A stretch of DNA of 64,000 bases from a virus: positions 258,022-322,021 of IMG/VR virus record IMGVR_UViG_3300022744_000001. One strand, 5' to 3'. The stretch's first letter is position 1. Each line of letters opens with the position of its first letter. Under the pieces are notes generated by a model. The model made no database searches. It saw only the letters and a program-made list of their open reading frames with translations, and was not told the DNA's origin. The position numbers and the translations under genes are program-made. This document shows positions 16,964 to 34,844 of the stretch, piece after piece.

Positions 16964-19900
16964 TCAGAAGGTTCGGTTGGCCACTGTGATCGTGTTCGGG
17001 TCCACATCATAGTGCACGTGGTTTGACACCAGGGGGTGACCCTCGATGCGGTACAAGTCCGCCGCCGCGTACCCTTCTCTCGTGCCATTCGTCCCGATAA
17101 TCACCTCGGAGGTGTACCCGTCGTTGCTGAGCCTGGAGGCGTTTGTGACCACGAGCATCATTAGCTCGTCGCCCGCACTGGCCTCGTTCGCCCCCACGTT
17201 GGTAACCGAGTTGCGCACCAGGAATGCCCGACCTGTGATCAAGTTCGTGTCGCGGCCCGTGCCCTCCTGGTGGTCGTACGTGGCATGCAGCTCGCCGCCC
17301 GGGTGGCTACCCGACCCAAGGAAGACCGAGCCACCGCGGTTCGTGCGGAAGTTGGTCAACAGAGCATAGTTGCCCGTCTCGCCATCCACATGCACCAGGG
17401 TGTCCCCAGGAACCCCAGGAGACCGTTCCGCCGTCTGAACCTCAACTTCTTCGTACTCGGCCGACGAGGCAACCAAGCTCGAGATGCTGGTTCCAGTACC
17501 AACCGAGTTGGTGTACCGGAACGGAGCCTTGTTCGTGTCGGAAAAACTTCCGCCATGGAACTGGTAGTCCTTCCAGAACGCACCCAGGGGGAGGCGCTCT
17601 GTGCACCCGAGATAGTCCTGGCTTACCTCACGGTCATTCGTGACCGACAGGGTCGAACTCAAGTGCCCCGGAAGGATGGGGGGCCGAGGAGCCACGCCCG
17701 AAGAAGGTGGGTAGTTAGTCAAATCTTCTCGGCCCACGTTGCGGAAGTCGTACTGGTTGACTTCGACGATGTCCCCGGAAAGGCGACCGGTGCCGAGAGT
17801 CGTCACGAATCCAATCGAAGCCAAAATCTCGAGTGGCTTCTGGTTTGGACGCGTGAGGTTCGTGAGGTCGATTTCGGACGATTGAACCTGGTAGGCCACC
17901 GAACTCGACAACGGGCCCGCGGAGTAGGGGATGTCCACGTAGCTCGTCTGGGAGCCCCAGGCGTCGCCCTGGTAAGGCGTACGGCTGTAGTTCACGAGAG
18001 CCGTGTCCGCCGCCGAAATGGGCGCCGGGATGATGGCCGACGGGCCTGCGATGAAATTGCTGAGGTTGGTCGCCCGGTTGCCCGTGTTGGCACCCGTGCC
18101 CGTAGGACGGTTCCGCGAAAGCACGAGGCGGAACGGCTTGCTGAGGTCGAACGCACCACGGTCGAAACCAAAGAGGCTGGCCTCGATGACATAGTGGGCC
18201 GACTCAAAGCTCGCGATCGGGGTCGGAGACTTGGTCAGGTCAAGAACGTCCGCATTGAGCACGAACGTCGAATCCCCGTCGTCGTCGATTTCGATCCAGA
18301 AGGTCGGGCCTTTGAAGTCCTGTCGGAGCAGGTTCTTCGCACCACCGCCACCGATGCTCGCACGAGTGGAAGGGTTGAAGGCCGAGCCATTGGTCTTGTA
18401 GTCGCTGGCCTCGTACACCGCGAAGAGGCGAGCGATACCATAAAAGGGCGGAAGCTCGAGGCCCTTGCGCCCCATGCCACGCTGGTCGGTGAAAAAGCGA
18501 AGGCCCGCAAAGGTGTTGCCACCGAACGAGAACGTCGCGTTGTACGTGGCTGGAGTGGTCGAAACGCCAGAGAAGTTACCCGTGGACAGCGCTGCATAGG
18601 ACAGCGTGCCGTTCACGTAGTTGATGTACTGGCGGTTGTGGTCCGGGTCGTTGAGGTTCGTGTTCAACCCCTCAAGCGACTGGAGCATGTAGTTGATGCC
18701 GTTGTGGAAGTTCGTCCCGTTCACAGGGAGGATCGGCACTCGCACTTCGCCCCAGCCAGGTACCAAATGGCGAGGCAACGTGACGTAGAAGTTCTTCCGG
18801 TTTGCATCGGAATCCGTGGTGCCACTGAAGAGGCCCAGCGGGTCCGTGGTTGTCCACTTCGACGTCGTCCCATCCAGCTTCTTGAGCGGCATGAGCGACT
18901 GTGTGTGGTGGATTCGATAGTCGATGCCCGTGGCCGTGGGGATGTTCCGGTCCACCGTGAACGTGGTTGCACCCACGGCACCCGTGATTCGGTACCTTCC
19001 AGCCGCAAGGCCCGTGTCGATGATGAGGGTGTCATCCGCTTGGACGTTGGCACCCGAGAAGTTCTGAGTGCTGTCCGTGAACGTCAGGGTCAGGTTGGAA
19101 ACGCCAGCCGTCCCCGTCGTCACAGGTGACGAGTAGGGATTGGCCGACGTGCCGTCCAAGGCGTGAACCTGGGTCGGGAACGACACGTGGCGGAAGGGGG
19201 ACAGGATAACGGTCTTCGACCCCACGTCCGCATAGGCTTCCGCCGTAACGGGGAGGAGATTCTTGTACTCGTTGTTCCGGTACTTCGACCAGAGGAGCGC
19301 CCAAGAGGTTCGGAGAGCAGGCAGGGGAGACGTGGAAATGTTCACGCCCGACTGCTGCACCATGAGCGTTGCACTGGGGTTATACAGCAGGATGTTGTGC
19401 AGAGCGTCCGGGCGACGGGACAAACCACGCCCACCGCCGTACTGCACGTGCATCGTGATGTAGACGTCCCGAGTAGACGGGAACGGAGAACCCACACCCT
19501 TGAACTTGATCGTAATGTCGTCGTTCGGTCCGGGATTGTTGGGGGTCACCTTGTAGCGGTGAGGCGGAAGAGGGGCTTCGTCGCCGTCCAAGCGAACTTC
19601 AATCGCACCACGACCCCTACGAATTACGTAGGAAACACTCGAGTCCGTGGGGAGGTTTTCATCCACATGAACTGAATCGTTTCCATTTACCGTGTCAATC
19701 AGATAGGAACCGGCAGCGGGTCCAGTGAAGATGACCAGAGTGTCCCCAGGAAGCACCGAACCCAAGTTGTTGGTGTCCGTGAAGGTCCGGGTGCCGTTGG
19801 TGCTACCCGTCGAGCCACTTGCAGGAGCCTCATTCAAGAACCGAACCTGGTCGCCATCAGCACCAGGGACCGTATTCTTGAACTGCGCAATGGCGACAGT

Positions 19901-21547
19901 GATTTCGTCGCCATTGCCGTCCCCAAGGGTGGACTCGGCGGTCCATTGACCCGGGGTAGTACCCGAGGGGGACGCCAAACTCGTCACCGTTGCGCCAATC
20001 GCCAAGGAGAAGTTCAGGTTCTGCACCTGAGCAAACCCGGGGGACTGCACTGCGGTTGCCGAGGGAGTGCAGATGACTTCGACCTTCTGCTGCACCGGAG
20101 CATCCGAATAGATCATGCGGATGTTGTCGGGAGCATCGATCTTCGTCACGCCCAGACCAGCCGCCGAAGCGCTGATACGGTCCTGGTACGCCACGAAGGT
20201 TCCCTGGGTGCTGCCACCGGAACGCTTCCAGTTCGCCCGGAGCTGCCCCTTGAGGAGCTTGTCCAGGTTCGACTGCAAAAGCGTGGCGTAGTTGAACCCG
20301 TTGGGATTCACAACGTGACGAAGGTCCAGGACGTCGGTCGCCGCAATCTGGTCTGCAAAGAGGCCGTCCGGGCGGCCGGACAACACCTTCACAGGGGCGC
20401 CCGCTGGGTGAGCCTCTGCCTTCGTCCCGTTGACTCCGCGACTCACACCACTCACGGTCGTCCCCGTGATGGCTTGGTACGTCATCAACTCGTCCCCAAT
20501 TTGGATGAGCACTGGGGAAGTAGGCGAAGCCGGGAGCGGAATGTCCGTAGCCGAAGCCAACGTAAACGTCGTGGCGGTCGAAGTCATGGACGACGCAATC
20601 GACGGGGTCGTCGAGAAGGTCCTGATGCCGGTACGGTCAGTCGCCGTGGGGTTGCGGTTGAAACCACCGTTCAAATTCTGGCTGGGGTCGGGAGACCAGG
20701 CCACCCCGTTGCGGCGGAAGACGACGCAAAGCGGGATTGCGTAGACATACCCATCCACCGTGCCGAGAGCGTTCTCCGTGCCGTCTCCAGCACGCCAGAG
20801 GCCCGCATCGCCAAGCTCCTGCCGCATGTTGGCGAAGGTGTACGACGTGGCTGACGAGGCCGCGCCCTGAGCCTTCACCGTGGTGGGGTCGAAGCCATCC
20901 GGATAGGTCGCGAGGCCAATGAGACCCTTCACGACACGGATGCGGTATTGAACCTGGACGCGCTGAGTGGTCTCAAACCCAATAGCCGGGTCCTGGATGT
21001 CGTCGCTGAGGTAGCTGTAGCCGCCCTCGACGTTGCCATAGCGGTAAATGGCCGAAGCCGACGGCTTGTTCAGCGTGCTCGGAGTCGAAGGCACGCGAGC
21101 CTGCCAAACCTCGAGAAACACGAAGTCGGAACGGAAATCGCCGCTGTTGGACGGGGGCGGGTCGAGCGTGATCTTGTTCGTCGTATCGACGTTGTTGGGC
21201 GAGCCCGGAGGAGTACCGGTCTTCGTACCCGTCACCGGGATGAGCCACCCGTTGACCACAGCCCACATGATCGAACGCTTCTCGCCACTGCGCTGACGGC
21301 CAAACTGAAGCCAATTGCTCCAGCTCGAGTCAGTGACGAAATCCTTCGAAGTGTTGACTTCGTTCCCCAACCACCCCGAGGGGGTGTTCCGCATGATGAA
21401 CTGCTGACGCCAATCGGTGTCGAGCTGCTGCATCAGGTTCAACTCAGCATCCGTAGGGGGCTTGCCCTGCTGCCAGATGACTTGAGTGAACTGAGCTTGC
21501 TTGGGGTCCAGGACGCGGCTCACGCCGCCGCCAAACTTGTCCGCCAT
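16964..21547 (-). CDS. giant virion structural protein P1 (1527 aa); its N-terminal ~350 aa are paralogous to the 867-aa protein at 31543..34146
   Basis: Shared blocks between the two proteins are MADKFGGGVSRVLDPKQAQF/MGQKNFGGAVSGYLDPTGRAF, DFVFLEVWQARV/DLLVLEVWRKL, TQRVQVQYRIRVV/TKRVQIQYRLRAV and GLWRAGDGTENALGTVDGYVYAIPL/GLWRAGDGDPSNALGTVDGYMYAIPL. The composition is Ser/Thr/Gly/Asn-rich and beta-type. Confidence 0.8.
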   Translation of the reverse strand: MADKFGGGVSRVLDPKQAQFTQVIWQQGKPPTDAELNLMQQLDTDWRQQFIMRNTPSGWLGNEVNTSKDFVTDSSWSNWLQFGRQRSGEKRSIMWAVVNGWLIPVTGTKTGTPPGSPNNVDTTNKITLDPPPSNSGDFRSDFVFLEVWQARVPSTPSTLNKPSASAIYRYGNVEGGYSYLSDDIQDPAIGFETTQRVQVQYRIRVVKGLIGLATYPDGFDPTTVKAQGAASSATSYTFANMRQELGDAGLWRAGDGTENALGTVDGYVYAIPLCVVFRRNGVAWSPDPSQNLNGGFNRNPTATDRTGIRTFSTTPSIASSMTSTATTFTLASATDIPLPASPTSPVLIQIGDELMTYQAITGTTVSGVSRGVNGTKAEAHPAGAPVKVLSGRPDGLFADQIAATDVLDLRHVVNPNGFNYATLLQSNLDKLLKGQLRANWKRSGGSTQGTFVAYQDRISASAAGLGVTKIDAPDNIRMIYSDAPVQQKVEVICTPSATAVQSPGFAQVQNLNFSLAIGATVTSLASPSGTTPGQWTAESTLGDGNGDEITVAIAQFKNTVPGADGDQVRFLNEAPASGSTGSTNGTRTFTDTNNLGSVLPGDTLVIFTGPAAGSYLIDTVNGNDSVHVDENLPTDSSVSYVIRRGRGAIEVRLDGDEAPLPPHRYKVTPNNPGPNDDITIKFKGVGSPFPSTRDVYITMHVQYGGGRGLSRRPDALHNILLYNPSATLMVQQSGVNISTSPLPALRTSWALLWSKYRNNEYKNLLPVTAEAYADVGSKTVILSPFRHVSFPTQVHALDGTSANPYSSPVTTGTAGVSNLTLTFTDSTQNFSGANVQADDTLIIDTGLAAGRYRITGAVGATTFTVDRNIPTATGIDYRIHHTQSLMPLKKLDGTTSKWTTTDPLGLFSGTTDSDANRKNFYVTLPRHLVPGWGEVRVPILPVNGTNFHNGINYMLQSLEGLNTNLNDPDHNRQYINYVNGTLSYAALSTGNFSGVSTTPATYNATFSFGGNTFAGLRFFTDQRGMGRKGLELPPFYGIARLFAVYEASDYKTNGSAFNPSTRASIGGGGAKNLLRQDFKGPTFWIEIDDDGDSTFVLNADVLDLTKSPTPIASFESAHYVIEASLFGFDRGAFDLSKPFRLVLSRNRPTGTGANTGNRATNLSNFIAGPSAIIPAPISAADTALVNYSRTPYQGDAWGSQTSYVDIPYSAGPLSSSVAYQVQSSEIDLTNLTRPNQKPLEILASIGFVTTLGTGRLSGDIVEVNQYDFRNVGREDLTNYPPSSGVAPRPPILPGHLSSTLSVTNDREVSQDYLGCTERLPLGAFWKDYQFHGGSFSDTNKAPFRYTNSVGTGTSISSLVASSAEYEEVEVQTAERSPGVPGDTLVHVDGETGNYALLTNFRTNRGGSVFLGSGSHPGGELHATYDHQEGTGRDTNLITGRAFLVRNSVTNVGANEASAGDELMMLVVTNASRLSNDGYTSEVIIGTNGTREGYAAADLYRIEGHPLVSNHVHYDVDPNTITVANRTF

Positions 21548-21594
21548 GGTCTTCTCCGATTCGATCCGTTCTTGCCGTCAATCGTGGTCGCGCA

Positions 21595-22248
21595 CTAAAA
21601 CAAAAGTGCCCAGGACCCGATGAAGACCCGACCACGTACGGTCACGTCAGTTACCCGCGTAAATCGAAGAATCACCTGGGTACCTTGAGAACCATTAGGG
21701 ATAGTTAAAAGTGCTTTGTCCGTTGCGGAGATGAAGTTAACTCCACCGTCAAAGCTGACTTCCGCAGTCACATCAACGTCCGGGGCCACTTCTCGGTAGG
21801 ACCGCTGAAAGGCTGAGGTGCGGGCATCCGAATCGACAACCTCGAAAAGCTCGTAGGTCAACGTCGCTTGAGCCGGGCCTGCACCAGGGCCGCCCCACGT
21901 GATCCCCAGCGGAACCGTCTCGAGCACCGGGACTTGGACGTCAGTGGGGTACAAAGCCACCGCCCCATTCTTGCCGACAAGCACGCCTGTGCTGTTCGCC
22001 AAGTTCACCCCGCTCTCATCGAGCATATCGTCGTAGGCAATCTGGGTGAAGAGGCCGTAGGTACCCAAAATCCCCGCGTACTTCTTTGTGATGAGGTCCG
22101 GGAGGTCCGTGGGGTTCTGCACGATCACGTCGTCAGGCACCCGAACCACGTAGTTTCCCGTGATCTGGGTTTGAGGGGGCACCCCAAGTGACGCCACTAC
22201 GTCATTGATTTCGTCGTTGTACTGGTTGATGAGGTAGTGAGTGCTCAC
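21595..22248 (-). CDS. virion structural protein (217 aa)
   Basis: An ORF in the structural operon. The upstream giant gene overlaps it by 4 nt. Confidence 0.6.
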   Translation of the reverse strand: MSTHYLINQYNDEINDVVASLGVPPQTQITGNYVVRVPDDVIVQNPTDLPDLITKKYAGILGTYGLFTQIAYDDMLDESGVNLANSTGVLVGKNGAVALYPTDVQVPVLETVPLGITWGGPGAGPAQATLTYELFEVVDSDARTSAFQRSYREVAPDVDVTAEVSFDGGVNFISATDKALLTIPNGSQGTQVILRFTRVTDVTVRGRVFIGSWALLF

Positions 22249-25200
22249 TTGTTCTCTCCCTTGAGGGGCTTCTGACCGTACCTGCCAGGCACCCCCGACC
22301 GCACATTCGTGATGCGGAGGAGGTTGACCTTACCCGCCGGAGTCGGATGGATGTGGTTTGCCTTGGGTGCCGGAAGAATCGTGTTGCCAACCGTCTCGTT
22401 GGGCATACCCACGATGGCCCCGCTGATCTGCCAGTACGGACGGCTCATGTGCCGCATACGCAGCGAGATGTCGCTGAAGCCTTCGAAGTCCACGTCTTCC
22501 ACAAACACCTGGTCGGCACTATCTACCAACACCGGGTGTGCGTTATGGCCGATGGTCCACACGAACACGTCCTCGCGGGGTACCGCGTGGAACCTGTGAC
22601 TGGTCGGGACCGCCACGGACACTTCACTCTGGTCCGTGCTGATCGTGATAGCCTTCGGGGCGCTAACGTCGCCGTCCACAACGTGGAAGATGAATTCGTT
22701 CGTGTAGGTTCCGTGCTTGATCGAAACCGTTGTGTTTCCCGTGGGCACCGGAGAAATCGAGCCCTTCAAGAAGCAGTGTTGAGTAGCGGGGGCGGTAACC
22801 ACCGAGCTGCCCGAGGAGGCACGATAGTACCCCGTAGTGGAACCAACCGACCCGACATAATCGATTTTGACGATGTCGTCGCGCTGGACTGAGCTGTACA
22901 ACTCCCCCACCGTAGTGAGGGCACTGATCACCATCCCGTCCAGATAGCCGGACGGCCAGCGAGAATCGCTTGATGTCAGCATGTACGAGCGGTTGCCGCT
23001 CGGGGGCGTCGAGTCCGTGTTATTCGTCGGAAGGCTGCCCGCCGAAGTAATACGGTTGTTCTCGAGGTAGGTCAGGTATCGAACACCCGTTTGAATCGGG
23101 GTCGTCAGGGCGGAGAAGCTCAAAACACGACCCGCACTGCCTGCCGTTGTCCAAGAACTCAACGAATCCAAGTCTACCAAGGTCTGCGAAATGGACTCAG
23201 CCTCAGTGCTCAAGAGCGTAGAAAGCTCGTCCGCGACCTGGAAGGCCACCGAGATAGTCCACTGAGCGGACACCGGATTCCATTTCGCGTGGGCTGCTCG
23301 AGCAACGTACTGGCTTGTGGAAGCCGAGTTGATCGATCCATAGCCCACACCAGGCTTGGAGCCGTAGAAGGACGAGGAGTTGCCCGAACCAATGGGGTTG
23401 GAGAGGGTGACCTCGTGGACGACTGAGAGGTTCAAGTCGATGAAGTTGACCAGGGCCGCGTAACTGCCACTGATGTTGTTCACCTTCGACATGCGCACCA
23501 TGGCAAAGTGGCTGCCATTGAACGAGATCGAGGCGATGTTGTAGGGGGTAGCCTCGGAGCTGAAATCGAAGGTTACCGTTTTGCGAAGCGTCCAGTTCGG
23601 GGTGACCACGTGTGCATGCGCAATGGTACCGAGGTCCGCCGAGTTCGCAGTGAAAATAACGAAGTCCCCACGGCTCTCCAGGTAGAAGAAGCCCAGGATG
23701 TTGTCGTCGCTGATCGCGCTAATCGTGGTGTCGAGGGAGCCAGCGGGCCGCACCAAAACACTCTGCTGCTTGAGCGTGCCCGAGGGGTTGAAGAACGCCA
23801 GGCTGGTATCCAGCACAGGCAGCGCCCCTTCTCCAGCCAGAATCATTCCGTACACGGTATACCCAATCGACGTGCTGTCCGCCGAAAGGTCCGCGCTCAG
23901 CTGAATCTGATTGGTGGCACCATTTACGGCGACAACCTTGTAGACGCCATTCATGTTCGAGAACTGGGGGTCGCCGAACACGGTACCCGAAGGGGGAGCA
24001 GTACGAACAATCTGGACTAGGTCACCCCTCTTCGCCAGAAGGTTCCCAGAAGCCGTCAGTTTACCATCGGAAGAGATGGTCCCAAGGTTCCCACCCCCGT
24101 TAATCCCACTGGAGTTGAACGCAGCGGCGTTGGCGATGTTGACGTTGGAGCGGAACCCATCCTTGGGGATCCGATACATGCTCAGGTACGGGCCGTACTT
24201 CGAAGCCACCACGAACTGAGTCCCATCCCAAAGAATACGGGGGGACGAGATCTGGTAGGCCGTCGTTAGGTGCGAGAGAACGTAGGTTGAAACGTTCACA
24301 TTGAGGGGCTCATTCAGGTAGCTCGAACTCACAAGTCCGATTGGACGAGTAGAGTTCAGGATGGTGATACCCAAAGTGCAACCAGAGTTGAGGTTCGCGT
24401 TGACACGAGGAACCCCGCCAACACGCCAGGCAACCGCGAGCTTTTCCCCAGACCAGCAAACCTCAAAGGTCAACGCGTCCTGGACCTGCGGGTTGTTGAG
24501 CACCACCTGCGAGCCATCTGGCTTCACAACCGTAGGCCCACCGATACCGAAATCGAGATCCGCGTACCCAACCAAGTTGATCCAGTCGTTCTGGTACTGG
24601 TTGAAGTTGTAGGTCTTGGCCCGTACGCCAGTAAGCTCTTCGCCTTCGGTGCGGTCGTCCACGCCGAGGTCAAAGAAATAGAGCCGGTTTTCCGCGGCGA
24701 TCACGCCAAGGAACTGACTGCCCGTCCAAACGACTCGACCCGTGTGTGCTGGGTGCGAGTAATCACTGAACCCAACCCCCGCACCACCGTTCTGGAAGCG
24801 CGAGCCGCGAGGCATGAGACCGTTTTGAACACGGAGGCGCTTGCGGATCGGGTTACGACCCTCGGCATCCGTAAAGACCGCGCACACCGAGGTGAACCAC
24901 GAGTCCACGAAACGAGGATCGGGGCTATCCACCTGCGAATAGAGCGGGTCACCACCCGAACCAGCGTAAGGGTTCGGGCCGTGGTTGATGTAGAAGCTCT
25001 GAACACCCCAGTGGATGAATGCGTTGCGGAATCCATCCGTGTCGAAGAAGTTGCTCGAGGCCCCGATGCCGCCATGACGAGTCAAAACGTGTTTACGCGT
25101 CTTCTCCGCGAAGTTCGTGACCGACGCTCCCGACTCAAGCGTCAAGCTCTTCAAGCCCGACTTCCAAGGGCCGAAAGTTTGGCGGAAGGCACGAAGCTGC

Positions 25201-28200
25201 TTGTTGAAGCTCCCGGAGAGGCCCCACTTCTCAAGGTCCACGGCGCAGTAGAAGTTGTCACCCCAAGCGATCGCCATGTAAGGCGCTTCGGACGGGGTTT
25301 GAACGGAGGTACCACGCTTCGGGGCGCCTACGCAGATGCCCTGGAAGCTGAGGTTCGCCGACAACCGATAGCCCTCTACCAGGTCGTTCCACTGGTTCGT
25401 GGTCAACCCAGAGATCGCATCGGTCACCACCGACCCGAACATATTGCGGTTCAGGACTTCCTGCTTGCGGTCGTAGATGGTGGACCCGCTCGAGTCCGAG
25501 TTCAAAGCATGAGTCGTGTAGGCGGTAGAGACGATCATCTCCCCGTCCACGGACACACGGAACCCAGGGGTCTTGAAACCCTTGGTCGTAGACGCGCCAC
25601 CGGAGAAAGCGCCGTCCGCAACCTGGTACTCAATCACCGAGCCAGAGATTGCGCCCGTGGGGGCTGCACTGAGGCGCACCACGTGCTCACTGAACACGCT
25701 CGAGATGCTGACCGTGTTCCCGTTGTTGGGGAAATAGATTCGCGTCCCAGAGTCCACCGTGATAGGCAGGAAGGCTCGAGTGGTCGCCGAGACCGACCCC
25801 ACACCGTCTTGCCCGAAGAGCATGTTCGGATCGATGAGGTAGTGGCTACCACTGAAGAAGAAATACGCCCCCGAGTAGGAGTGGTATGAGCAAGGGGTCG
25901 GGCTCACAACCACCCAGTCCTGACCGTTCCATGTGATGTCAGGAATCAACGAGGGGTACTCGTTGTAAACCGAGGAGCACTCCATGAAGTAGAGCAGCGG
26001 GGCGACCTCGTTGTAAGGGCGCCACGTGTTCGACTGCACGTTGCGATAGGGAACCATCGGGTCGCGACTACCCATAGAGCGCTCAAGCGTGTCGCGGTCC
26101 TGTGGGGTGAGAACGACCGTGCCGGTGTTCGGCGTGTAGTAAATGTCGAGGATGTTGAAGCTCGTACCGAGATGCTCACGGTAGGGCCACGGGTTCATGG
26201 ACCCGTGCGGGAAATCGAGGTAGGCGATGTTGAACCCGTTGTCCCAGTTCTCGACGTTCGAATTGCGGTGAGCCGCAGTCGTGTCGAAGTTCTGGTAAAC
26301 CGCCAACACCTTGCCGTTCGGGCCCTTGCTCAGGCGCACGAAGTCCGGCTCACGCTCCTGGTCGTAGTAAACCGAAGCGTCCGGTCGGAAGTTGGTCGTA
26401 TTGGCGTGGCCTGCAACAACTTTGGACGTCGTAGACGCACCGGTACCGCCATTGACAGTGCACGCCATGACCCAGCATAGCGGCGCAATGGCATAGGTGT
26501 AGCTCCCATTCGGGGGCACCGTCCCGTCGTCATAAACGACGGTCAGGTTGGCCGCACTTGAATCTATCACCACACCGTTCTTGCCGTTGGTTAGATCCAA
26601 GAAACGGCTGCCAATACGAACAGAAAGGCCAAGGGTGTCGCCGGTCCAGTTCGTAACTGCGGGGTCAGTCAATACCCCAGAGGCAATTGTAGCCCCAGAA
26701 CCCGTGACGATCTTATGCCGACGCACCGAGTAGGCGACAACGAACTCGTCATTGACCCCGGACCAAGCCACATCAGTAGACCCGATCAAAGACCGAACGA
26801 TAGAAGGGCTGGCGTTGTTCGGTGAGTTGGTCGTACGCTGCAAAGCCAGACTGACTGAACCAAACGAGAGATTGAGAGTGTAGACGTAGAGGTTCGGGGA
26901 AACCACGCCCCCCGCAAAGTTCACCGTTGCAATGACCGCGTAGTTGCCGTTGACCGCCACCGAAGGCGTAGTGGTCATGCCGTTGCCGGTGTTGGACACG
27001 GTATCGGTAAAACGAACCGAATACTGAGCGGTCTGAGTGTTGTACCCCAGAGACACATAACGAGTCACCGGGTACCCTGCCCCAGGGGTGGCATCCTCTA
27101 CCCAAACAACAACGTAGCCGCCGTGGTTCTCATCGAACGCAGCTCGAGGGTAGTGACCCGTCGTGTGGTGGGCAGACTGCAACCCCACCGAAGCTCGGGT
27201 AAAGAGGGGGAACGAAGTCCCTGTCATGGCCTTGAGGTCGATGCCCTTGTACGCGTTGTCGCTGTAGACCATCGAGCCGTCAGGACGCAACTCGTTGAAG
27301 TACACGATGTCGGCAGTCTCATCCGCAACGAAGATAGCCCAGACCCTGCGAATCGGATTCCAAACCACCTCATACCCTTCGACGGTATTCGAGGTGTTGG
27401 TGCCATTTGCGTACTGCCAGGTGTTGGGGATCGTCGTGGTTCCATTCCAAGTGGGGTCGTAAACACCCCATGGAGTGTTCGCGCCAAACTTGAACGCCCC
27501 AGAGGTCGTCCCCTTGACCTTGGTAGCCGCCCCCTCGCCCTCCACAGTCACTCCGGGAGGAACATAAACTGGGCTGTTCGCGATGAACCGGAACTCGCCG
27601 CGCTTGAGGTGCACAACGCCATTGCCGGTGAACGAAGCCGCTAACAGCGCGTCATTCAAATGAGCATAGGAGTCCACCCAAGTCTCAGTGGAAACGCTCC
27701 CTTGCACGGACAGGTAGTTGAAGTCTGCGGCCAACTCCCGCGGATTGTTCGAGGTGGAGACCGTGATCGACGTTTTCTCTTGGATGGGGGCTTTGGAGAA
27801 CTCGTTGCCGAACCGGTTGTCCCCGAAACTCACCATCTGCACCGCGTTTGTGCCACGGTAGATGCTGTAGTTGCCGCTCGGGTCCCAACCATCAACGAAA
27901 TCGTCGAGGTAGACCGTCGTCCCATCACTGGAGATGTCTACAACCAACCAAGTCAAACCGTTGCTGACAACCAAGTCGCCACGGCGCACACCCAGGTTCT
28001 TGTAGTTCAGGGTGCCTTCGTTGAAGTTGGTTGTCCCGTTGTCCGGAGCAGCGTTTCCGCTGTAAACCAACGTGCGGCCAATACGAATGCCGCGGAACGA
28101 GTCAGGCGACTCGAGGTTGATCTGACCGCCGAAATCCGTGTTTGTCGAGCCAGTGTTGGCCCGAACCATGAAATCATTGCCGTCGGTCGTGGCCCCAAGT

Positions 28201-29378
28201 ACCCACCCCGTCCCGTTGTAATGAACCTTCGCGGGGGTGAGGGTGCTGAACTCCGTGCTGTTCGGGACAAACAAACTGTCCGCACTGCGAGCGGTCAGGC
28301 TTTGGTCCACCGCGAAGAACACGGCGTAGAGCTGGAGTCGCCCAGTCGTAGTGCTCACGCCACCGTTGCCGCCGCTCGGCTTGATGTCATCGCCAGCTCG
28401 AGGAGCGACCGAGAAGCGGACGATGCCCGCCTTGTAGTCGATCGTCATGCGCTGGTCAGCCGCCGGGATCGTGCTGTCAATGACCGGGTTCAGAGTCGCA
28501 ATCGGCGAGGTGAGATCAGGTGCAGTGCCGCTCGCGTTGCTCTTGTAGAGCACAACGCGGTAGCCAAGGTGGTCGAGCGCAAGACGGGGCCCAGACGTGT
28601 TCGGAGGGCCGAATACGGCATCCGCACGGTCCACAGAAGAGTCCGCCCCAAAGAGCGGCGGGACGAGGTTGCGGACGCGGTCAGCGTTGATGGCATTGAG
28701 GGTGGGGCCCGCCTGCGTATGCAACGTCGAGCCGGGGACCACCATCATGAACGACTGCTCACGCCCCAGAGGGCCGGAGCCCGGGACCGCAAACAGCTGG
28801 ACCACATTGGGTCGGATGATTGTGTAGGGGTACCCCAGGGCATCCATGGTCAAAGCCGAGGATGCGTTGTTGACTCCAAGGGAGTTGGCCGCCACCGAAG
28901 TAATCGAAGCGACCTTGTACTCGTTCGCCCCCGAGCCACTGGGTCGATTGCGGATGATCAGGTAGTCCCCAACCTGAACCCCCGCCGCCACCATGTCTAC
29001 GGAGGTCCCCCACGTGATGCCGCCAGGAGAGGTAACTGCCCCATCTTCGGTTGTGACGTTGACAACCGTGCTAGGGCCGTACCACTGAACGGTCTCCGAA
29101 GGAACGTTATCCCTAGCGATCTGCGTAATGGTCAGAAGCCCAGTACCAGGGTAGACCGGGGGACGAATCGAATAGATGTCCCCCAAGTCGATGGTCGGCG
29201 CCGTGCTGTACGGCTCCGCATTGATCGACCCCACCCCCACCACGCCCTCCGGAGACAACCCGGAGTCGCCCACCGTGAGAGCCTTGCCGCCCGCAAAGAA
29301 ATCTGACTTGCGAAGCTGTTCCAGCTCCAAACGAGTCAGATTCGAGTAGGTACCTGTTGCGGAGTATGAGCCTGCCAT
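22245..29378 (-). CDS. giant virion protein (2377 aa), beta-rich; fibre, spike, decoration or injected-protein candidate; not a tape measure
   Basis: A single uninterrupted 7.1-kb ORF with Ser/Thr/Gly/Asn/Val-rich composition and no long Ala/Glu/Lys helical segments. All overlapping antisense ORFs are Arg-rich artefacts. Confidence 0.85.
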   Translation of the reverse strand: MAGSYSATGTYSNLTRLELEQLRKSDFFAGGKALTVGDSGLSPEGVVGVGSINAEPYSTAPTIDLGDIYSIRPPVYPGTGLLTITQIARDNVPSETVQWYGPSTVVNVTTEDGAVTSPGGITWGTSVDMVAAGVQVGDYLIIRNRPSGSGANEYKVASITSVAANSLGVNNASSALTMDALGYPYTIIRPNVVQLFAVPGSGPLGREQSFMMVVPGSTLHTQAGPTLNAINADRVRNLVPPLFGADSSVDRADAVFGPPNTSGPRLALDHLGYRVVLYKSNASGTAPDLTSPIATLNPVIDSTIPAADQRMTIDYKAGIVRFSVAPRAGDDIKPSGGNGGVSTTTGRLQLYAVFFAVDQSLTARSADSLFVPNSTEFSTLTPAKVHYNGTGWVLGATTDGNDFMVRANTGSTNTDFGGQINLESPDSFRGIRIGRTLVYSGNAAPDNGTTNFNEGTLNYKNLGVRRGDLVVSNGLTWLVVDISSDGTTVYLDDFVDGWDPSGNYSIYRGTNAVQMVSFGDNRFGNEFSKAPIQEKTSITVSTSNNPRELAADFNYLSVQGSVSTETWVDSYAHLNDALLAASFTGNGVVHLKRGEFRFIANSPVYVPPGVTVEGEGAATKVKGTTSGAFKFGANTPWGVYDPTWNGTTTIPNTWQYANGTNTSNTVEGYEVVWNPIRRVWAIFVADETADIVYFNELRPDGSMVYSDNAYKGIDLKAMTGTSFPLFTRASVGLQSAHHTTGHYPRAAFDENHGGYVVVWVEDATPGAGYPVTRYVSLGYNTQTAQYSVRFTDTVSNTGNGMTTTPSVAVNGNYAVIATVNFAGGVVSPNLYVYTLNLSFGSVSLALQRTTNSPNNASPSIVRSLIGSTDVAWSGVNDEFVVAYSVRRHKIVTGSGATIASGVLTDPAVTNWTGDTLGLSVRIGSRFLDLTNGKNGVVIDSSAANLTVVYDDGTVPPNGSYTYAIAPLCWVMACTVNGGTGASTTSKVVAGHANTTNFRPDASVYYDQEREPDFVRLSKGPNGKVLAVYQNFDTTAAHRNSNVENWDNGFNIAYLDFPHGSMNPWPYREHLGTSFNILDIYYTPNTGTVVLTPQDRDTLERSMGSRDPMVPYRNVQSNTWRPYNEVAPLLYFMECSSVYNEYPSLIPDITWNGQDWVVVSPTPCSYHSYSGAYFFFSGSHYLIDPNMLFGQDGVGSVSATTRAFLPITVDSGTRIYFPNNGNTVSISSVFSEHVVRLSAAPTGAISGSVIEYQVADGAFSGGASTTKGFKTPGFRVSVDGEMIVSTAYTTHALNSDSSGSTIYDRKQEVLNRNMFGSVVTDAISGLTTNQWNDLVEGYRLSANLSFQGICVGAPKRGTSVQTPSEAPYMAIAWGDNFYCAVDLEKWGLSGSFNKQLRAFRQTFGPWKSGLKSLTLESGASVTNFAEKTRKHVLTRHGGIGASSNFFDTDGFRNAFIHWGVQSFYINHGPNPYAGSGGDPLYSQVDSPDPRFVDSWFTSVCAVFTDAEGRNPIRKRLRVQNGLMPRGSRFQNGGAGVGFSDYSHPAHTGRVVWTGSQFLGVIAAENRLYFFDLGVDDRTEGEELTGVRAKTYNFNQYQNDWINLVGYADLDFGIGGPTVVKPDGSQVVLNNPQVQDALTFEVCWSGEKLAVAWRVGGVPRVNANLNSGCTLGITILNSTRPIGLVSSSYLNEPLNVNVSTYVLSHLTTAYQISSPRILWDGTQFVVASKYGPYLSMYRIPKDGFRSNVNIANAAAFNSSGINGGGNLGTISSDGKLTASGNLLAKRGDLVQIVRTAPPSGTVFGDPQFSNMNGVYKVVAVNGATNQIQLSADLSADSTSIGYTVYGMILAGEGALPVLDTSLAFFNPSGTLKQQSVLVRPAGSLDTTISAISDDNILGFFYLESRGDFVIFTANSADLGTIAHAHVVTPNWTLRKTVTFDFSSEATPYNIASISFNGSHFAMVRMSKVNNISGSYAALVNFIDLNLSVVHEVTLSNPIGSGNSSSFYGSKPGVGYGSINSASTSQYVARAAHAKWNPVSAQWTISVAFQVADELSTLLSTEAESISQTLVDLDSLSSWTTAGSAGRVLSFSALTTPIQTGVRYLTYLENNRITSAGSLPTNNTDSTPPSGNRSYMLTSSDSRWPSGYLDGMVISALTTVGELYSSVQRDDIVKIDYVGSVGSTTGYYRASSGSSVVTAPATQHCFLKGSISPVPTGNTTVSIKHGTYTNEFIFHVVDGDVSAPKAITISTDQSEVSVAVPTSHRFHAVPREDVFVWTIGHNAHPVLVDSADQVFVEDVDFEGFSDISLRMRHMSRPYWQISGAIVGMPNETVGNTILPAPKANHIHPTPAGKVNLLRITNVRSGVPGRYGQKPLKGENK

Positions 29379-29410
29379 TTGATTTCCCGTTCAGGTAGAA
29401 GAAGCCGTCG

Positions 29411-31540
29411 TCAGGGAGTCCATTCAACTTCGGTGACGCTTAGGTTCTGCCCTACTCCGTTTTTGATAAATGAAATTCTGACGAAAATCAGGAATTTCCC
29501 GGAGCCGTTGTTCGAAGTGAAAGAACCCGTGTCGTAAGCGTAGACGTCCCCAGAAATTCCGGTGCGGCATCCACGGAAGTCCGAACTCTTGTTCAGATCC
29601 GGCACACCATTCGCGCGACCAAGGTCAAGCCAGCCGGTCGCCCCGGGCACCTTGATCTGCACGATGGCTCCGCCAGGGTGGTCGGTGATTTCGTTGAGGT
29701 CGATGGCCGCATTGCCTGCGTCAAAAGCCGAGAAGGCCAACCCCGTGATACGAAGGTGTCCGGTGTTGCGCGCGATGCCCGTGTCGAAAGCACGGACCCA
29801 GCGACGCTTTGTGCTCGAGGCGTCCCCAGAAAGCACCGTGGCATAGTTTCGACCCGCATTTGCAGGGTAGATACTGGCCGCGGTGAAGTCGATGCTCGGG
29901 TAAACCAAGCGACCGCTGAGGACCTGCAACTCGTTCGAGGGGATCGAGACCGACGAGTTGAACGCGTTGCCGCCCGCCGGAAGGATGGGAGTAGTCGCCG
30001 ACGAAGCCGCGAACGTGTTGACGTGGCGATAGGTCTCGGACGTGAACGAGTCCAACGTGTCCGAGGCAACCCCAGTGAACTGGGTGTTGTAGAGATACTG
30101 CTCCGTGCTGACCGCATCGACGTTGGCTGCGAAAGCCCCGCGCCAACGAACCCTGACTTGAGCGAAGGGGTAGGTCGGAGCCGCACTCCCCGTCGCCACC
30201 GGGTGAGTCGAGTGCTGGAAACGAGCCACTGAGGTGAGTCCAGCTGGATTGACCAACGTGTAGGGCAACCCGCTGCTGTTATGGACGATGTGATTCCCAG
30301 AGTCGTCGTAAAGCTGGTACCCCGTTGTGCCTCCACTACCAAAATCGCCCATGAGAACTGCAACTGGAGTTCCGGCCGACTCGTACCCGACCGGTACGCT
30401 CGCTGAAGCCACGGTATTGGTGAGGTACGAATTCTCGAACAGGCTGCTGACCGTCGAGAGGATATTGATTTGCAGGTTGAACGAGTTGTAGTAGGCGATG
30501 CCGGACAGGTTTGAGGTGGTCAGCGTACCTGTGGGGCTCGTCGTGATCGTGGCGCCACTCGGGGGCGTCCCGCTCAAAGCGTCCACGAAAACGTTCAAGC
30601 GGTTGACGTTGTCGTAGTTCGTGCTGTCGGCAGGAGCCGCGCTGTAGCAGTTGGCCGCCACGAAAGTCAGCGCCGTGAGCGAGGCTGGCTGAATAGACGC
30701 CAGCGTGGTCGCGTAGGTCTCCTTCCAGTGCACCAGCAGGAACGAGCCGCTGTCGCCGCTCACCAGCGTCACGGACGTGCTGTACTTGGCAAGCTGATAG
30801 GCACTGAAATTCGTGCTGAAAGGGGTGTATTCGCTGCCAGGGTACGAGCTTGCATAGGGCAGACGATCGATGAGGCTGATCTTGTCCAGACCCGTATTGC
30901 TCGCCGTGTAATCGGTCTGGCCCGATGTCCGAGTAGCCTCAATGAAGGCCGACCCAGGAAGACCCGCCGGTGCGGGGTTAGGGCCAAGCCACAAGGCCGC
31001 CATCAACGTGGTCTGTCCCGCGTTGAAGAAATCCCCGTTCGTGGTTGAGTAAAGAGCGAGGACGCCGCGGTCAGCAGGGTAAATGGTGCCGCTGATGGTC
31101 TGAGTCCCTGCACTTGCCACAGGGGTCAGGTACTTCGTCACGATACCCACGCCAGACTTCGTGAAACCACCCTGAATGGCGGAAGAGCCCACCGTCATGG
31201 CGTTGCTCCACGACGGGAGACCAGAGTTCGGCACCGACCCATTGTTGAAGCCGATACGGTCAGGCTTGACGGGCAAAAGGTCTGAGAGCGTCGAGAGGGC
31301 GTCCATAACCGATTCCCCGTCATAGGGACCACCGGCCGAGGAGAGGAGCGGTTGGCCCGTTGTCGGGTTCACCGGGGGCATCCCAATGGACCCCGCCATG
31401 TGAGCGTCAACAGGGTCGCTGATGTGCGCCGAAAGTTCGCCACCCCCAAGAGGGAAAGCCAACGCCGAGGCCGGAACCTGCCCCGCGGCAAGCTTGCCTG
31501 GGCCGGGCTGAACTACGCTAGGGTTCTTGGACGAGGGCAT
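29411..31540 (-). CDS. virion structural protein (709 aa)
   Basis: A long ORF with beta-rich composition that directly follows the P2 paralog. Confidence 0.75.
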   Translation of the reverse strand: MPSSKNPSVVQPGPGKLAAGQVPASALAFPLGGGELSAHISDPVDAHMAGSIGMPPVNPTTGQPLLSSAGGPYDGESVMDALSTLSDLLPVKPDRIGFNNGSVPNSGLPSWSNAMTVGSSAIQGGFTKSGVGIVTKYLTPVASAGTQTISGTIYPADRGVLALYSTTNGDFFNAGQTTLMAALWLGPNPAPAGLPGSAFIEATRTSGQTDYTASNTGLDKISLIDRLPYASSYPGSEYTPFSTNFSAYQLAKYSTSVTLVSGDSGSFLLVHWKETYATTLASIQPASLTALTFVAANCYSAAPADSTNYDNVNRLNVFVDALSGTPPSGATITTSPTGTLTTSNLSGIAYYNSFNLQINILSTVSSLFENSYLTNTVASASVPVGYESAGTPVAVLMGDFGSGGTTGYQLYDDSGNHIVHNSSGLPYTLVNPAGLTSVARFQHSTHPVATGSAAPTYPFAQVRVRWRGAFAANVDAVSTEQYLYNTQFTGVASDTLDSFTSETYRHVNTFAASSATTPILPAGGNAFNSSVSIPSNELQVLSGRLVYPSIDFTAASIYPANAGRNYATVLSGDASSTKRRWVRAFDTGIARNTGHLRITGLAFSAFDAGNAAIDLNEITDHPGGAIVQIKVPGATGWLDLGRANGVPDLNKSSDFRGCRTGISGDVYAYDTGSFTSNNGSGKFLIFVRISFIKNGVGQNLSVTEVEWTP

Positions 31541-31542
31541 CT

Positions 31543-34146
31543 TCAGCTTCTCCGGTTGAGCAGGTTCCCAGCAACACGGAACACAGCCGCGACAGTTGTG
31601 TTGTTGGAGTTCAAGAACTTCACCGAGTTCTCAGCGTCGAAACTCGCCCAACGAATGAGCAGGACAAGATAAAGGGCACCCTTGGGCCCCAGAGTCGTGT
31701 CCGCAGTGCTCTCCATGAGCGTCGGGAGAACGACCTTGTGCACACGGTCGTCCGACAGATTTTGCCCGAAGGCGTTCGGGTTGTACCCCGCAGCCGCATT
31801 GGGGAAATAGGTGCGACCTTCAATGTCGATGTCCGAAGGGGACCGTGTGAAGGTGACTCCTTCCGGGTTCGGCACGTAGGGGATGTACGCCGGGACTTTG
31901 AGGAAACCCGTTGAGGCGTTGAACTCCGCAACGTAGATCTCCGGTGCGCCGTCCAGCTCGTGCTCACCAGACCAGGTGCCGCCATTCTTGATGATGCCGC
32001 CGGTTTGAACATATGCGAGAGGGTAAGGGTACCCTTCGCCCTGGGACGCCGACCCCGTTGTGATCGTGTAGAGGGAGGGGGAGATCCAGCGCGGCACGAA
32101 TGTGATGCTCGTCCCCAACACACTCGAGTGCACCGTTTGAGGCGCTCGAGTGCGGTAGTAGACGGTCATCTGGAAACCCGTCTGAGGATAGGGCCGCACA
32201 GCTTGGTACGTGACGCTGATGGTGGACCCAATGGCCGCAGCACTGACCAAGTTCAAATCACGGCCAGAAGAATCCACCGATGCTGGGGCTGGGTTGCCGT
32301 TCACCGTCACACCGACCAAGGTTTTCACACGTTCAGGCATGAGGTGGTGCCGAGCCGTGTGGGTCGAGTTGGAGATGAAGGAGTAGGTCAGATTGCCCGT
32401 CAGATACTGCATCTGAGCTTCACGATGAGTAGCATCGATAGCAAGCGTATCTGCACTGGCGAACGACACCGGAGCGGTATTGGGCAGAGCCCCAGGGTTG
32501 TTACCCGAAAAGCTCGCATTGCCGAAATCATCAGATGGGGTTTTGGCCAAACCACATCCAGGCGGGTACGCGATCAAAAGGTCCACATACATGGGCTCGG
32601 TCGTAAACCCTGACACCGGGGCAGCGCCAAGAGTGATCACGATGTTGCCAGGGGGGTAACTTCCAATCCCCGTGATGCTCTCAACCGGCCAGGGGGTCGT
32701 GGTCGTGGTGACATACAACATGCCGACTTCAGCGCTCTTCTGGCCAGCAGACGCGCCCTGCACCCATACCCGAGTCACATCAACGATGCGCGTACCACTC
32801 GGGGCTCGGCTCAAGAACCCAATCGCACCCGAGTAGGGGTACTGGGCGATCACCGAGGGGTTGATCGTAACCTGGGTGCCCGTCTGCCATGTCGAGGTGG
32901 AGACGTTCGGGTCACCAGGGGAGATGGTGAAGGTCATGACCTCGTAGATGGGCCGGTCGGAGAAGAACCGTCGAGTGCAGTCGAACTGCCCCAGGAACTC
33001 CGCCCCAGGCGTGTCCCCCGTAACGACGCCATCCCCAGGAAGCACGCCGATCTCGTCCGCCCAAAGGGGGGAGTGGCCGTTGACCCCGCCGCCAATGGGC
33101 GTCGTCGTCCACTCGGTCTTCAGGTTGTTATCGAGCAGGTACCCGAAGTTCTTCTCAGCGATCTCCTGGTAGGAAGACCACCCGGTGAGAGAGACCGCGC
33201 GACGAAGATCGGCAACGTCCTGAATCTGAAACACGTCCGCGTAGAAACCGTCAGGACGGGTAGTTGAGGGGTAGTTGCCGCCGCCGTTGTGGTTGGTATT
33301 GCGGTCGAACGCCGTCGAATTGCGGCGGAAGATCGCCACCAGCGGAATGGCGTACATATACCCGTCCACCGTGCCCAAGGCATTGGAGGGGTCGCCATCA
33401 CCAGCACGCCAAAGGCCGGGGTCACCGTTCGCACTCTGGTTCACGTACACGAACGAGGAAAGGTTCCCGTCTGGAGTCGTAGGCGTCGGAGGCACCGTGT
33501 TGGCCACCACTGCTGGGTCGTCAATGCCCGCAGGGTAGGTGAAAACGTCCACCCCATGAACGGCACGAAGTCGGTACTGGATCTGGACACGCTTGGTCGT
33601 CTCAGTTCCCACTGTGCCGTCCAAGATGTCGTCGTCGTAGTTCAACCCTAAACCCGTCGGTACCTTGACGTTACCGTTGCGCCAGATTTTCCCACCCGCA
33701 GTCTTGCCATCCGTTGAGGGGGCCGCGGAAAGCAGCTTGCGCCATACCTCGAGCACGAGAAGATCAGTACGCTTTGCTCCCGCCCCGGTAGGGGGTGCAT
33801 TGAACGTAACCCGATTCGAGGAAGCATGGTTCGTGCACTGCACGTCGATGATCCAGCCATTCACCAGAGCCCGAAGGTTGTTCGAGAGGATGAGCTGGTT
33901 CGCCGTCGTGGTGCTGGTGAAAATCGGGTCGATGGAGTCGCTGTTGTTCAGCGGGTCATCCGTAAACCACCCAGAGGCGCATGCCTTCCTGGCTAGCTCG
34001 AGCCCAAATAGTGAAGCGACCTCGTCCGACAGGTTGAGGTCTTTGTCGAGAACGGGTTTGCCAGCCTGGTAGACAGCTTGCTCAAACGCCCTTCCGGTTG
34101 GGTCGAGGTAGCCGCTAACTGCCCCTCCAAAGTTCTTCTGGCCCAT
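31543..34146 (-). CDS. virion structural protein P2 (867 aa), N-terminal paralog of P1
   Basis: See the evidence for P1. The C-terminal regions of P1 and P2 are unrelated. Confidence 0.8.
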   Translation of the reverse strand: MGQKNFGGAVSGYLDPTGRAFEQAVYQAGKPVLDKDLNLSDEVASLFGLELARKACASGWFTDDPLNNSDSIDPIFTSTTTANQLILSNNLRALVNGWIIDVQCTNHASSNRVTFNAPPTGAGAKRTDLLVLEVWRKLLSAAPSTDGKTAGGKIWRNGNVKVPTGLGLNYDDDILDGTVGTETTKRVQIQYRLRAVHGVDVFTYPAGIDDPAVVANTVPPTPTTPDGNLSSFVYVNQSANGDPGLWRAGDGDPSNALGTVDGYMYAIPLVAIFRRNSTAFDRNTNHNGGGNYPSTTRPDGFYADVFQIQDVADLRRAVSLTGWSSYQEIAEKNFGYLLDNNLKTEWTTTPIGGGVNGHSPLWADEIGVLPGDGVVTGDTPGAEFLGQFDCTRRFFSDRPIYEVMTFTISPGDPNVSTSTWQTGTQVTINPSVIAQYPYSGAIGFLSRAPSGTRIVDVTRVWVQGASAGQKSAEVGMLYVTTTTTPWPVESITGIGSYPPGNIVITLGAAPVSGFTTEPMYVDLLIAYPPGCGLAKTPSDDFGNASFSGNNPGALPNTAPVSFASADTLAIDATHREAQMQYLTGNLTYSFISNSTHTARHHLMPERVKTLVGVTVNGNPAPASVDSSGRDLNLVSAAAIGSTISVTYQAVRPYPQTGFQMTVYYRTRAPQTVHSSVLGTSITFVPRWISPSLYTITTGSASQGEGYPYPLAYVQTGGIIKNGGTWSGEHELDGAPEIYVAEFNASTGFLKVPAYIPYVPNPEGVTFTRSPSDIDIEGRTYFPNAAAGYNPNAFGQNLSDDRVHKVVLPTLMESTADTTLGPKGALYLVLLIRWASFDAENSVKFLNSNNTTVAAVFRVAGNLLNRRS

Positions 34147-34199: not shown

Positions 34200-34844
34200 T
34201 CAGAAGGTTAGACGCCAAGTGATTTCCAACGTACTGGTGGCTGGCTTCGAGATCACGTTGAACGTGAGGTAGTTGATCAACGTCTCTTTGGTGGTGAGAT
34301 CCACCAGAGTGTTGTATGAGCCGTTGGGGGGCGTAACCGGGTTGCGCACGGAAAGGTTCGTAGAGATGTTGCCGCCGATGAGCCCCATCTCGACCAGCGG
34401 GCCCACGGCCTCTGATTCAGTGAACACCGTGGTGAAGTCCACGACGTTCGTCGGGATGCTCGTCGGGATGCCATCACCATCAATGAACTGAGTTGTCGAG
34501 AACGTCTTGCGGGTAAGCTCCGAGTAGAGCGCTCGTTGCGTGTTGGTCGGAGCGGGCGGAGACAGAGGGTTCCAGCCAACATCGCCGGTACCTACAGCCA
34601 ACACGAAAGCGCCCTTGGACGGCTCGGAGTTGTCCTTGACAAGGCGAGCAATCAGAATCGAAGCGTCTTTGACAATGAGGTTGCGCTTCTCCCAGCGCTG
34701 AGTTTCCCCACTTCGCACATCCTGCATCTTGAAGAAAACGTCGCCCCGAATTGCATAGGGGACCCTCTCTTCATACCGAGGCTTGAAGGCGCCGAAGAAC
34801 GCATTTGCGACGCGGGAAAAAACTTCACTCTTCCTCATATTCAT
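34200..34844 (-). CDS. virion structural protein (214 aa), possible tail or baseplate component
   Basis: A 214-aa ORF with beta-rich composition that ends …LEITWRLTF. No family could be assigned. Confidence 0.6.
   Translation of the reverse strand: MNMRKSEVFSRVANAFFGAFKPRYEERVPYAIRGDVFFKMQDVRSGETQRWEKRNLIVKDASILIARLVKDNSEPSKGAFVLAVGTGDVGWNPLSPPAPTNTQRALYSELTRKTFSTTQFIDGDGIPTSIPTNVVDFTTVFTESEAVGPLVEMGLIGGNISTNLSVRNPVTPPNGSYNTLVDLTTKETLINYLTFNVISKPATSTLEITWRLTF

Follow-up and report, generated by a model that had tools for sequence, protein, structure and literature searches.

How a phage comes to encode two large proteins that begin alike and end differently, and what it uses them for, is the question raised by a 64,000-nucleotide stretch of viral DNA (IMG/VR record IMGVR_UViG_3300022744_000001, positions 258,022 to 322,021) that we refer to throughout as the window. 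The two proteins are the long paralog P1 (1527 amino acids (aa), 16964..21547) and the short paralog P2 (867 aa, 31543..34146). They bracket three genes of 217, 2377 and 709 aa, termed here g217, g2377 and g709, whose open reading frames (ORFs) were confirmed at 21595..22248, 22245..29378 and 29411..31540, respectively, and all genes in the P1-P2 part of the window lie on the minus strand. A first-pass annotation made from the sequence alone proposed that a duplicated N-terminal adaptor of ~350 aa allows P1 and P2 to serve as alternative appendages at the same site on the virion. We arrive at a different reading, which we hold with moderate confidence, namely that P1 and P2 are duplicated outer-baseplate proteins similar to the tripod protein of Staphylococcus phage 812 and to TssK, a type VI secretion system (T6SS) protein, which dock via their shared module and each carry their own conserved distal body.

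The relationship between P1 and P2 is apparent from direct comparison. BLASTP aligns the two proteins in one segment that joins P1 residues 5-297 to P2 residues 6-291 (38% identity, E = 3e-49) and a second that joins P1 residues 392-495 to P2 residues 297-410 (30% identity, E = 7e-10), with the two segments separated by a P1 insert of ~95 residues (298-391). The near-identical blocks noted in the first-pass annotation are indeed shared, with the motif GLWRAGDG...NALGTVDGY[VM]YAIPL...FRRN found in both proteins, and many conserved residues of different kinds are spread over the aligned segments. The similarity is not one of low complexity. A profile comparison (hhalign) of 70 P2-type with 29 P1-type orthologs from related loci gave a probability of 100% and E = 2.9e-98, with a confident alignment that equates P2 residues 1-434 with P1 residues 1-557 over 408 columns at 36% identity and that places the P1 insert at residues 305-384. 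The shared module (32845..34146 in P2 and 19877..21547 in P1) is thus located at the extreme N-terminus as had been proposed, but its size is ~430 residues in P2 numbering rather than ~350. The additional claim that the proteins diverge completely past this module is nearly right, as there is only a weak profile hint of relatedness for the last ~70 residues (P2 799-867 versus P1 1429-1510, probability 21%). The insert in the middle of the P1 module (80-95 aa, residues ~305-384, 20396..20635) matches part of phrog_1101 "tail protein" (5.9e-9), is present in every P1-type homolog and is missing from P2-type homologs. P1 and P2 are thus true paralogs and, since each is conserved over its whole length in relatives, they arose by an ancient duplication after which both copies were retained. 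A recent or local duplication, as well as an assembly artefact, was considered and rejected as the subfamilies with and without the insert each occur in many independent contigs.

The shared module has many homologs. A first search with the P2 module recovered 22 homologs that were already split into subfamilies with the insert (P1-type) and without it, a profile search raised this number to more than 462, and exhaustively searching 1.84 billion cluster representatives yielded 1377 clusters (defined at 50% identity) at E <= 1e-3. In nearly all of the 1377 representatives the shared domain starts at residue 1-9, and the full-length proteins that carry it fall mostly into two size ranges of ~840-1000 aa and 1300-2200 aa. 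The family is mostly limited to very large phage contigs.

For gene order we mapped the window proteins onto 78 IMG/VR loci around P2 orthologs together with loci collected earlier (given L numbers below), of which 79 contain a full P2-type gene. A recurring arrangement was observed in these loci of g1804 - g579 - g214 - P2 - variable region - g217 - P1, where g1804, g579 and g214 are the genes that precede P2 in the window. A P1-type gene is found within the 10 kb downstream flank of P2 in 55 of the 79 loci, with the gap between them ranging from 36 to 9851 bp (median 4.4 kb). In the remaining 24 loci, for the most part, either the sequence ends early or the flank is occupied by g709- and g2377-like genes. 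The P2 orthologs in related loci (840-1200 aa) match residues 1-867 at 26-70% identity and do so at full length even at 26-33%, and whole-length P1 orthologs of 1300-1800 aa are similarly present, for example in L062 where residues 1-1525 match at 51%. The compact relatives L016 and L017 exhibit the order wedge - g270 - g1804 - g579 - g214 - P2 - g709 - g217 - P1 with no giant gene. Based on this co-occurrence and on the full-length conservation of each paralog, the sequences indicate that P1 and P2 are fixed, non-redundant structural components and not exchangeable cassettes. Outside of this collection, the 485-kb uncultured phage LR745208.1 encodes both paralogs at a distance of ~52 kb. We also observed unrelated genes inserted inside the otherwise conserved block of related huge phages. 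In L006 (7112-9242) an opposite-strand N6_N4 DNA methyltransferase gene separates the g579 homolog from that of g214 and, between the g217 and P1 homologs of L004 (12514-15378), there is a same-strand S-adenosylmethionine decarboxylase-like gene followed by an opposite-strand gene of 804 aa.

The setting of this block is that of a contractile-tail baseplate. On the minus strand of the window there is a baseplate wedge protein of 1148 aa (Baseplate_J / T4 gp6-like, 54801..58247; Pfam Baseplate_J 7.5e-16, phrog_6 1.8e-27), which is followed by g270 (53980..54792, minus strand), a candidate third wedge component (gpI of phage P2 / TssG-like) that resembles the N-terminus of phage G gp189. Closer to P2 and on the same strand are g1804 (36667..42081), a giant conserved structural protein with an Ig-like domain (weak Big_5 match, 0.0012) that keeps its position in relatives and is a possible arm or scaffold component, and g579 (34917..36656), a structural protein 5' of g214 whose position is also conserved in related loci. 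P1 is the final large gene in the structural module, and only a few small ORFs separate it from a replication module located 3' of P1 that codes for an SNF2 helicase, a DnaB-like helicase, a primase and a family-A DNA polymerase. A public contig of 448,224 bp encodes a protein identical to P2, and an independent gene call on this contig gave the same gene lengths as in the window. Given the Baseplate_J wedge gene, the replication module and the contig with the identical protein, the window is part of a huge (at least 448 kb) contractile-tailed phage. Other P2 orthologs (50-70% identity, 840-880 aa) occur on contigs of up to ~550 kb. When the entire 17-kb region was compared by megablast with 50,697 phage records, there was no nucleotide-level match.

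Structure prediction provides a further indication of what the shared module may do. An AlphaFold2 model of full-length P2 built from 91 sequences (predicted local distance difference test (pLDDT) 89.6, predicted template-modelling score 0.87) depicts a compact, mostly beta, multi-domain protein. Its first residues are modelled with low confidence (1-36), with the extreme N-terminus (1-40) below a pLDDT of 50 in the monomer model, and residues 1-40 are also the most conserved stretch in both paralogs. A terminus that is conserved and yet modelled at low confidence is what would be expected of a segment that takes on order only once bound to a partner. TssK makes contact with the feet of TssG through its residues 1-18 (PMC8406304). 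Foldseek with the full P2 model against PDB returned nothing with E < 1e-3 or a meaningful TM-score. The predicted fold of the shared module seems closest to the shoulder with which TssK and siphophage receptor-binding proteins (RBPs) dock on the baseplate, with a fainter likeness to the DUF4815 region at the N-terminus of the phage 812 tripod protein. The idea in the first-pass annotation of an N-terminal adaptor with different distal parts therefore remains reasonable in that there is a real N-terminal domain whose predicted fold may be shoulder-like and could serve for attachment. A resemblance to T4 gp9, gp10 and gp34 was looked for by both sequence and fold and was not found.

Sequence profiles also hint at a connection between the module and DUF4815. 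Using a DUF4815 alignment of nine sequences from Herelleviridae, Ackermannviridae, a Vibrio phage, a cyanophage and Wolbachia phage WO, hhalign placed P2 residues 18-102 in register with residues 17-90 of K118 from phage K (P = 8e-4, probability 24%). The P1 module gave P = 5.5e-3, and a reversed-template control scored 18.7 versus 38.7 for the real template. Matching motifs are present in these regions, "GKPVLD.ELNL.QD" in P1/P2 and "..LQQ.ELNE.Q.I" in DUF4815. Gene order, fold and this N-terminal motif are each weak, and all point toward a tripod-like protein.

A working model can be drawn from these observations. By analogy with TssK and the 812 tripod, each paralog would probably form a trimer in which the conserved first ~40 residues, together with the shoulder, could grip a docking loop in the wedge or arm scaffold, with g270, g214, g579 and g1804 as candidate docking partners. 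Both paralogs would be present in the virion simultaneously, each carrying its own distal body, and variation in host range would be supplied mainly by g709, with contributions from accessory giants such as g2377. Several observations count against such a role. Neither P1 nor P2 matches a Pfam family at E <= 0.1 and no PHROG covers the shared module. When 24 family members were compared with DUF4815 there was no match at E <= 5, with the TssK family likewise unmatched, so membership in DUF4815 is not established. The profile match to DUF4815 covers a mere ~75 residues at its 24% probability. The neighbour g214, a candidate arm-segment protein, scores 15.1 bits against Pfam BW3TFN, which is below the Pfam threshold of 27, and its family profile finds no match among PDB sequences. 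Finally, Tunturi_5 was found to have a single copy of the module which, along with the distant copies in LR745208.1, indicates that adjacency of P1 and P2 is not obligatory.

Other explanations for the pair have to be judged against the same evidence. If P1 and P2 were alternative receptor-binding fibres that compete for, or alternate at, one site to give two host specificities, then a common N-terminal module with different distal parts would be understandable, as would the fusion of this module to a ConA-like lectin domain in phage G (Laminin_G_3, 2.8e-5) and the annotation of the Tunturi_5 homolog as a tail fiber protein. Receptor-binding parts normally vary, however, whereas the distal bodies of P1 and P2 are conserved over their full length down to 26-33% identity, and both paralogs are retained together in 55 of the 79 loci. 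Additionally, the prediction for P2 is a compact, globular protein of several domains and not a fibre. The pattern of an exchanged distal part, which is absent from P1 and P2 as their orthologs align full length, is instead observed in g709. We consequently regard alternative fibres as unlikely, and the original suggestion that the two proteins are alternative appendages on the same virion site is not supported.

Co-assembly is less likely still. P1 and P2 might join through their shared module to make a hetero-oligomer, such as a 2:1 heterotrimer, and so form a single asymmetric appendage, given that their N-terminal modules are homologous and oligomerisation-prone and that their genes show strict co-occurrence and the same orientation within one operon-like block. 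The modules are nevertheless just 36-38% identical and that of P1 is interrupted by 80-95 residues in its middle, all of the structural analogues that were found (TssK, lactococcal RBPs and the 812 tripod) are homotrimers, and the genes are ~52 kb apart in LR745208.1, all of which leads us to consider such an assembly improbable. It would be more surprising yet, and in our estimation very improbable, if P1 and P2 were not baseplate components at all but neck or capsid fibres, or cell-wall or polysaccharide enzymes that are not part of the virion, as their gene block directly continues the baseplate wedge module, the matches of the N-terminal module are coherent for baseplate-docking proteins, no enzyme family was matched, and the matches that might favour such a role span only ~100 residues at a very high root-mean-square deviation.

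Among the neighbouring genes, g709 (29411..31540, minus strand), located directly after P2, best fits an exchangeable fibre or spike. Only its N-terminal anchor (aa 1-56, 31373..31540) is kept in relatives, at 52-67% identity over residues 1-52 to 1-59, with the remainder of the protein unrelated in L004, L018, L020, L022, L023, L035 and L040. At least 16 loci have a gene here that shares with g709 no more than its first 26-60 residues (50-67% identity). The gene that follows P2 codes for 565-1971 aa in most relatives and is an ORF of ~210-480 aa in a few loci. A conserved anchor with an unrelated distal part is a classic signature and, on this pattern, g709 is likely a modular receptor-binding protein whose distal part is exchanged. 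The accessory giant g2377 (22245..29378, minus strand) is variable or absent in relatives, with homologs in only 20 of the 79 loci. Its N-terminal ~400 aa are conserved at ~50% identity and the rest is at ~28% or missing. It has no Pfam, PHROG or isolate-phage match, a tblastn search against phage records was empty and a self-BLAST revealed no internal repeats. Immediately upstream of P1 is the small conserved protein g217 (21595..22248, minus strand), which may be a P1-specific adaptor or assembly factor. Of the 55 loci that contain P1, 38 also have g217, and in 25 it is the direct upstream neighbour of P1. No consistent Pfam match was obtained among 10 members of the g217 family and a profile search gave no meaningful PDB sequence match.

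On the 5' side, P2 is adjoined by g214 (34200..34844, minus strand), a candidate arm-segment baseplate protein (T4 gp8-like / BW3TFN-like) that 75 of the 79 loci have upstream of P2. Nine of 11 members of its family match Pfam BW3TFN and nothing else (best E = 2.7e-5), and g214 itself is 37% identical to phage G gp190, which is annotated as T4 gp8-like (PMC12484599). As g214 and g217 each lie ahead of one member of the P1/P2 pair, we also asked whether they are paralogs of each other, which was rejected (hhalign probability 0.2%).

The greater length of P1 is due in part to inserted small domains, among them the 80-95-aa insert described above. A domain of ~60 aa is present at P1 residues 586-650 (19598..19792) and again at residues 816-882 (18902..19102), both on the minus strand, with the two copies 43% identical (E ~1e-7). 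The second copy is 42% identical to g1804 (E = 3.6e-8), where residues 1348-1405 make up a third copy. The segment at 586-650 is unmatched in some P1 orthologs. These domains share the motif GD.L.I..G...G.Y.I. In the homolog P0002, an insert at another position matches Pfam E1_FCCH (5.3e-7).

Duplication is not confined to P1 and P2 in this window. Between 42136 and 53435 on the minus strand there are more paralog sets, which comprise g233/g258/g236 (34-38% identity), g643/g662 (57-62%), g322a/g322b/g327 (53-60%) and g156/g157 (54%). None of these genes has a tblastn match between g270 and g1804 in the compact relatives L015 and L016, and serial duplication thus appears to have expanded the baseplate accessory genes in this phage. 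Elsewhere in the window, a gene for a 525-aa AAA-ATPase (3727-5304) adjoins the DNA polymerase and helicase genes, and its product matches phrog_8638, a family with no assigned function, over almost its full length (6.5e-92).

A docking module that carries distal bodies on a contractile-tail baseplate is a well-known kind of object, and nothing known about contractile tails is overturned by our results. Their use lies in the annotation of megaphage tails. Nearly all that is known of phages larger than 400 kb comes from metagenomes, and most of their tail and baseplate proteins lack annotation. The shared module defines a sizeable family that has no Pfam, PHROG or PDB sequence relative, and searches of PDB sequences with P1 and P2 as single sequences (phmmer) and with the P2 family profile (hmmsearch) also gave nothing meaningful. 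A structural and functional hypothesis is now offered for this uncatalogued family of ~1377 clusters, and a nine-gene baseplate-periphery block is anchored that consists of the wedge gene, g270, g1804, g579, g214, P2, g709, g217 and P1, in which g709, rather than P1 or P2, is the likely exchangeable determinant of host range.

At the protein level, the module was found in three deposited phages (four records), namely LR745208.1, Tunturiibacter phage Tunturi_5 (gp247) and Bacillus phage G (gp211). The latter two are jumbo myophages and their proteins are the sole cultured-phage homologs detectable by sequence (23-30% identity, E = 5e-9 to 5e-20), which makes them cultured relatives in which the model is testable. 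Phage G gp187-gp190 are homologs of g378, the wedge protein, g270 and g214, and the annotation given to gp189 is that of a gpI-like baseplate protein bearing a C-terminal appendage (PMC12484599). The gp211 gene is not adjacent to these genes but ~11 kb downstream of gp190. The only name its product carries is the placeholder "gp211", and the annotation of gp247 as a tail fiber protein is generic. The distal parts of both differ from those of P1 and P2. In gp211 (L002 19581-23117) the module is followed by the lectin domain mentioned above, and the module search reports two places in the phage G record, of which gp211 is one.

Among known systems, a possible parallel in gene order is provided by phage K, a close relative of phage 812. 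Its Baseplate_J gene (348 aa) is followed by a 1019-aa arm scaffold, a 173-aa BW3TFN protein (2.9e-69) and a 1152-aa DUF4815 protein (1.5e-205), and after this last gene (gp118) come RBP1, a small protein, RBP2 and then replication genes. In the window, the candidate BW3TFN-like g214 directly precedes P2, and P1 closes the structural module with a few small ORFs before the replication genes. The window differs in having many extra genes between the wedge gene and g214, and the distal domains of the tripod protein (gp119 / PhageK_118; PF16075; also known as VrlC or "adsorption-associated tail protein") are unrelated to those of P1 and P2. The DUF4815 / VrlC family is itself widespread, with 1695 phage records that span Herelleviridae, Ackermannviridae, T4-like cyanophages (Synechococcus phage Bellamy, L093, being among the loci) and Wolbachia phage WO. 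Several cyanophage records exhibit two matching places, so there may be more than one copy in some genomes, and in Wolbachia phage WOVitB (L090) a DUF4815-matching VrlC.1 is followed by a gene annotated as VrlC.2.

The likeness to TssK and to siphophage RBPs is one of predicted fold. TssK, like IglD of Francisella, has no sequence similarity to P1 or P2. Its middle domain is helical and its head binds the membrane complex, in contrast to the large beta-rich bodies of P1 and P2, and it is part of a secretion system while P1 and P2 are from a phage. The RBPs of lactococcal siphophages 1358 and p2, as well as the tail fibre gp42 of Haloferax virus HFTV1, are much smaller (~260-440 aa) and align with the module at 6-16% identity with a high root-mean-square deviation. 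The heads of these proteins are variable receptor binders, in contrast to the conserved distal parts of P1 and P2.

These systems also suggest how two paralogs might be accommodated on one baseplate. The wedge of phage 812 consists of two gp116 subunits and the N-terminus of gp117, which is the arm scaffold. T4 gp8-like dimers of the arm-segment protein gp118 stiffen the arm, and two docking loops of gp117 each hold one trimer of the gp119 tripod, an inner and an outer one (PMC13433997). In the T6SS, TssG likewise has two foot loops, and each of them binds a single TssK trimer via the TssK N-terminus (PMC8406304). It is possible, though we consider it doubtful, that P1 and P2 split two such docking positions per wedge to form a heterotypic inner/outer tripod baseplate, an arrangement that would link TssK, the siphophage RBP shoulders and DUF4815 as one ancient module. 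If so, then the double-trimer docking common to T6SS and Herelleviridae baseplates would have undergone subfunctionalisation in these phages. Both positions are filled by identical TssK trimers in the T6SS and by identical trimers of a single tripod protein in phage 812, whereas here they would be divided between two diverged paralogs of unequal size, P2 of ~870 aa and P1 of ~1500 aa.

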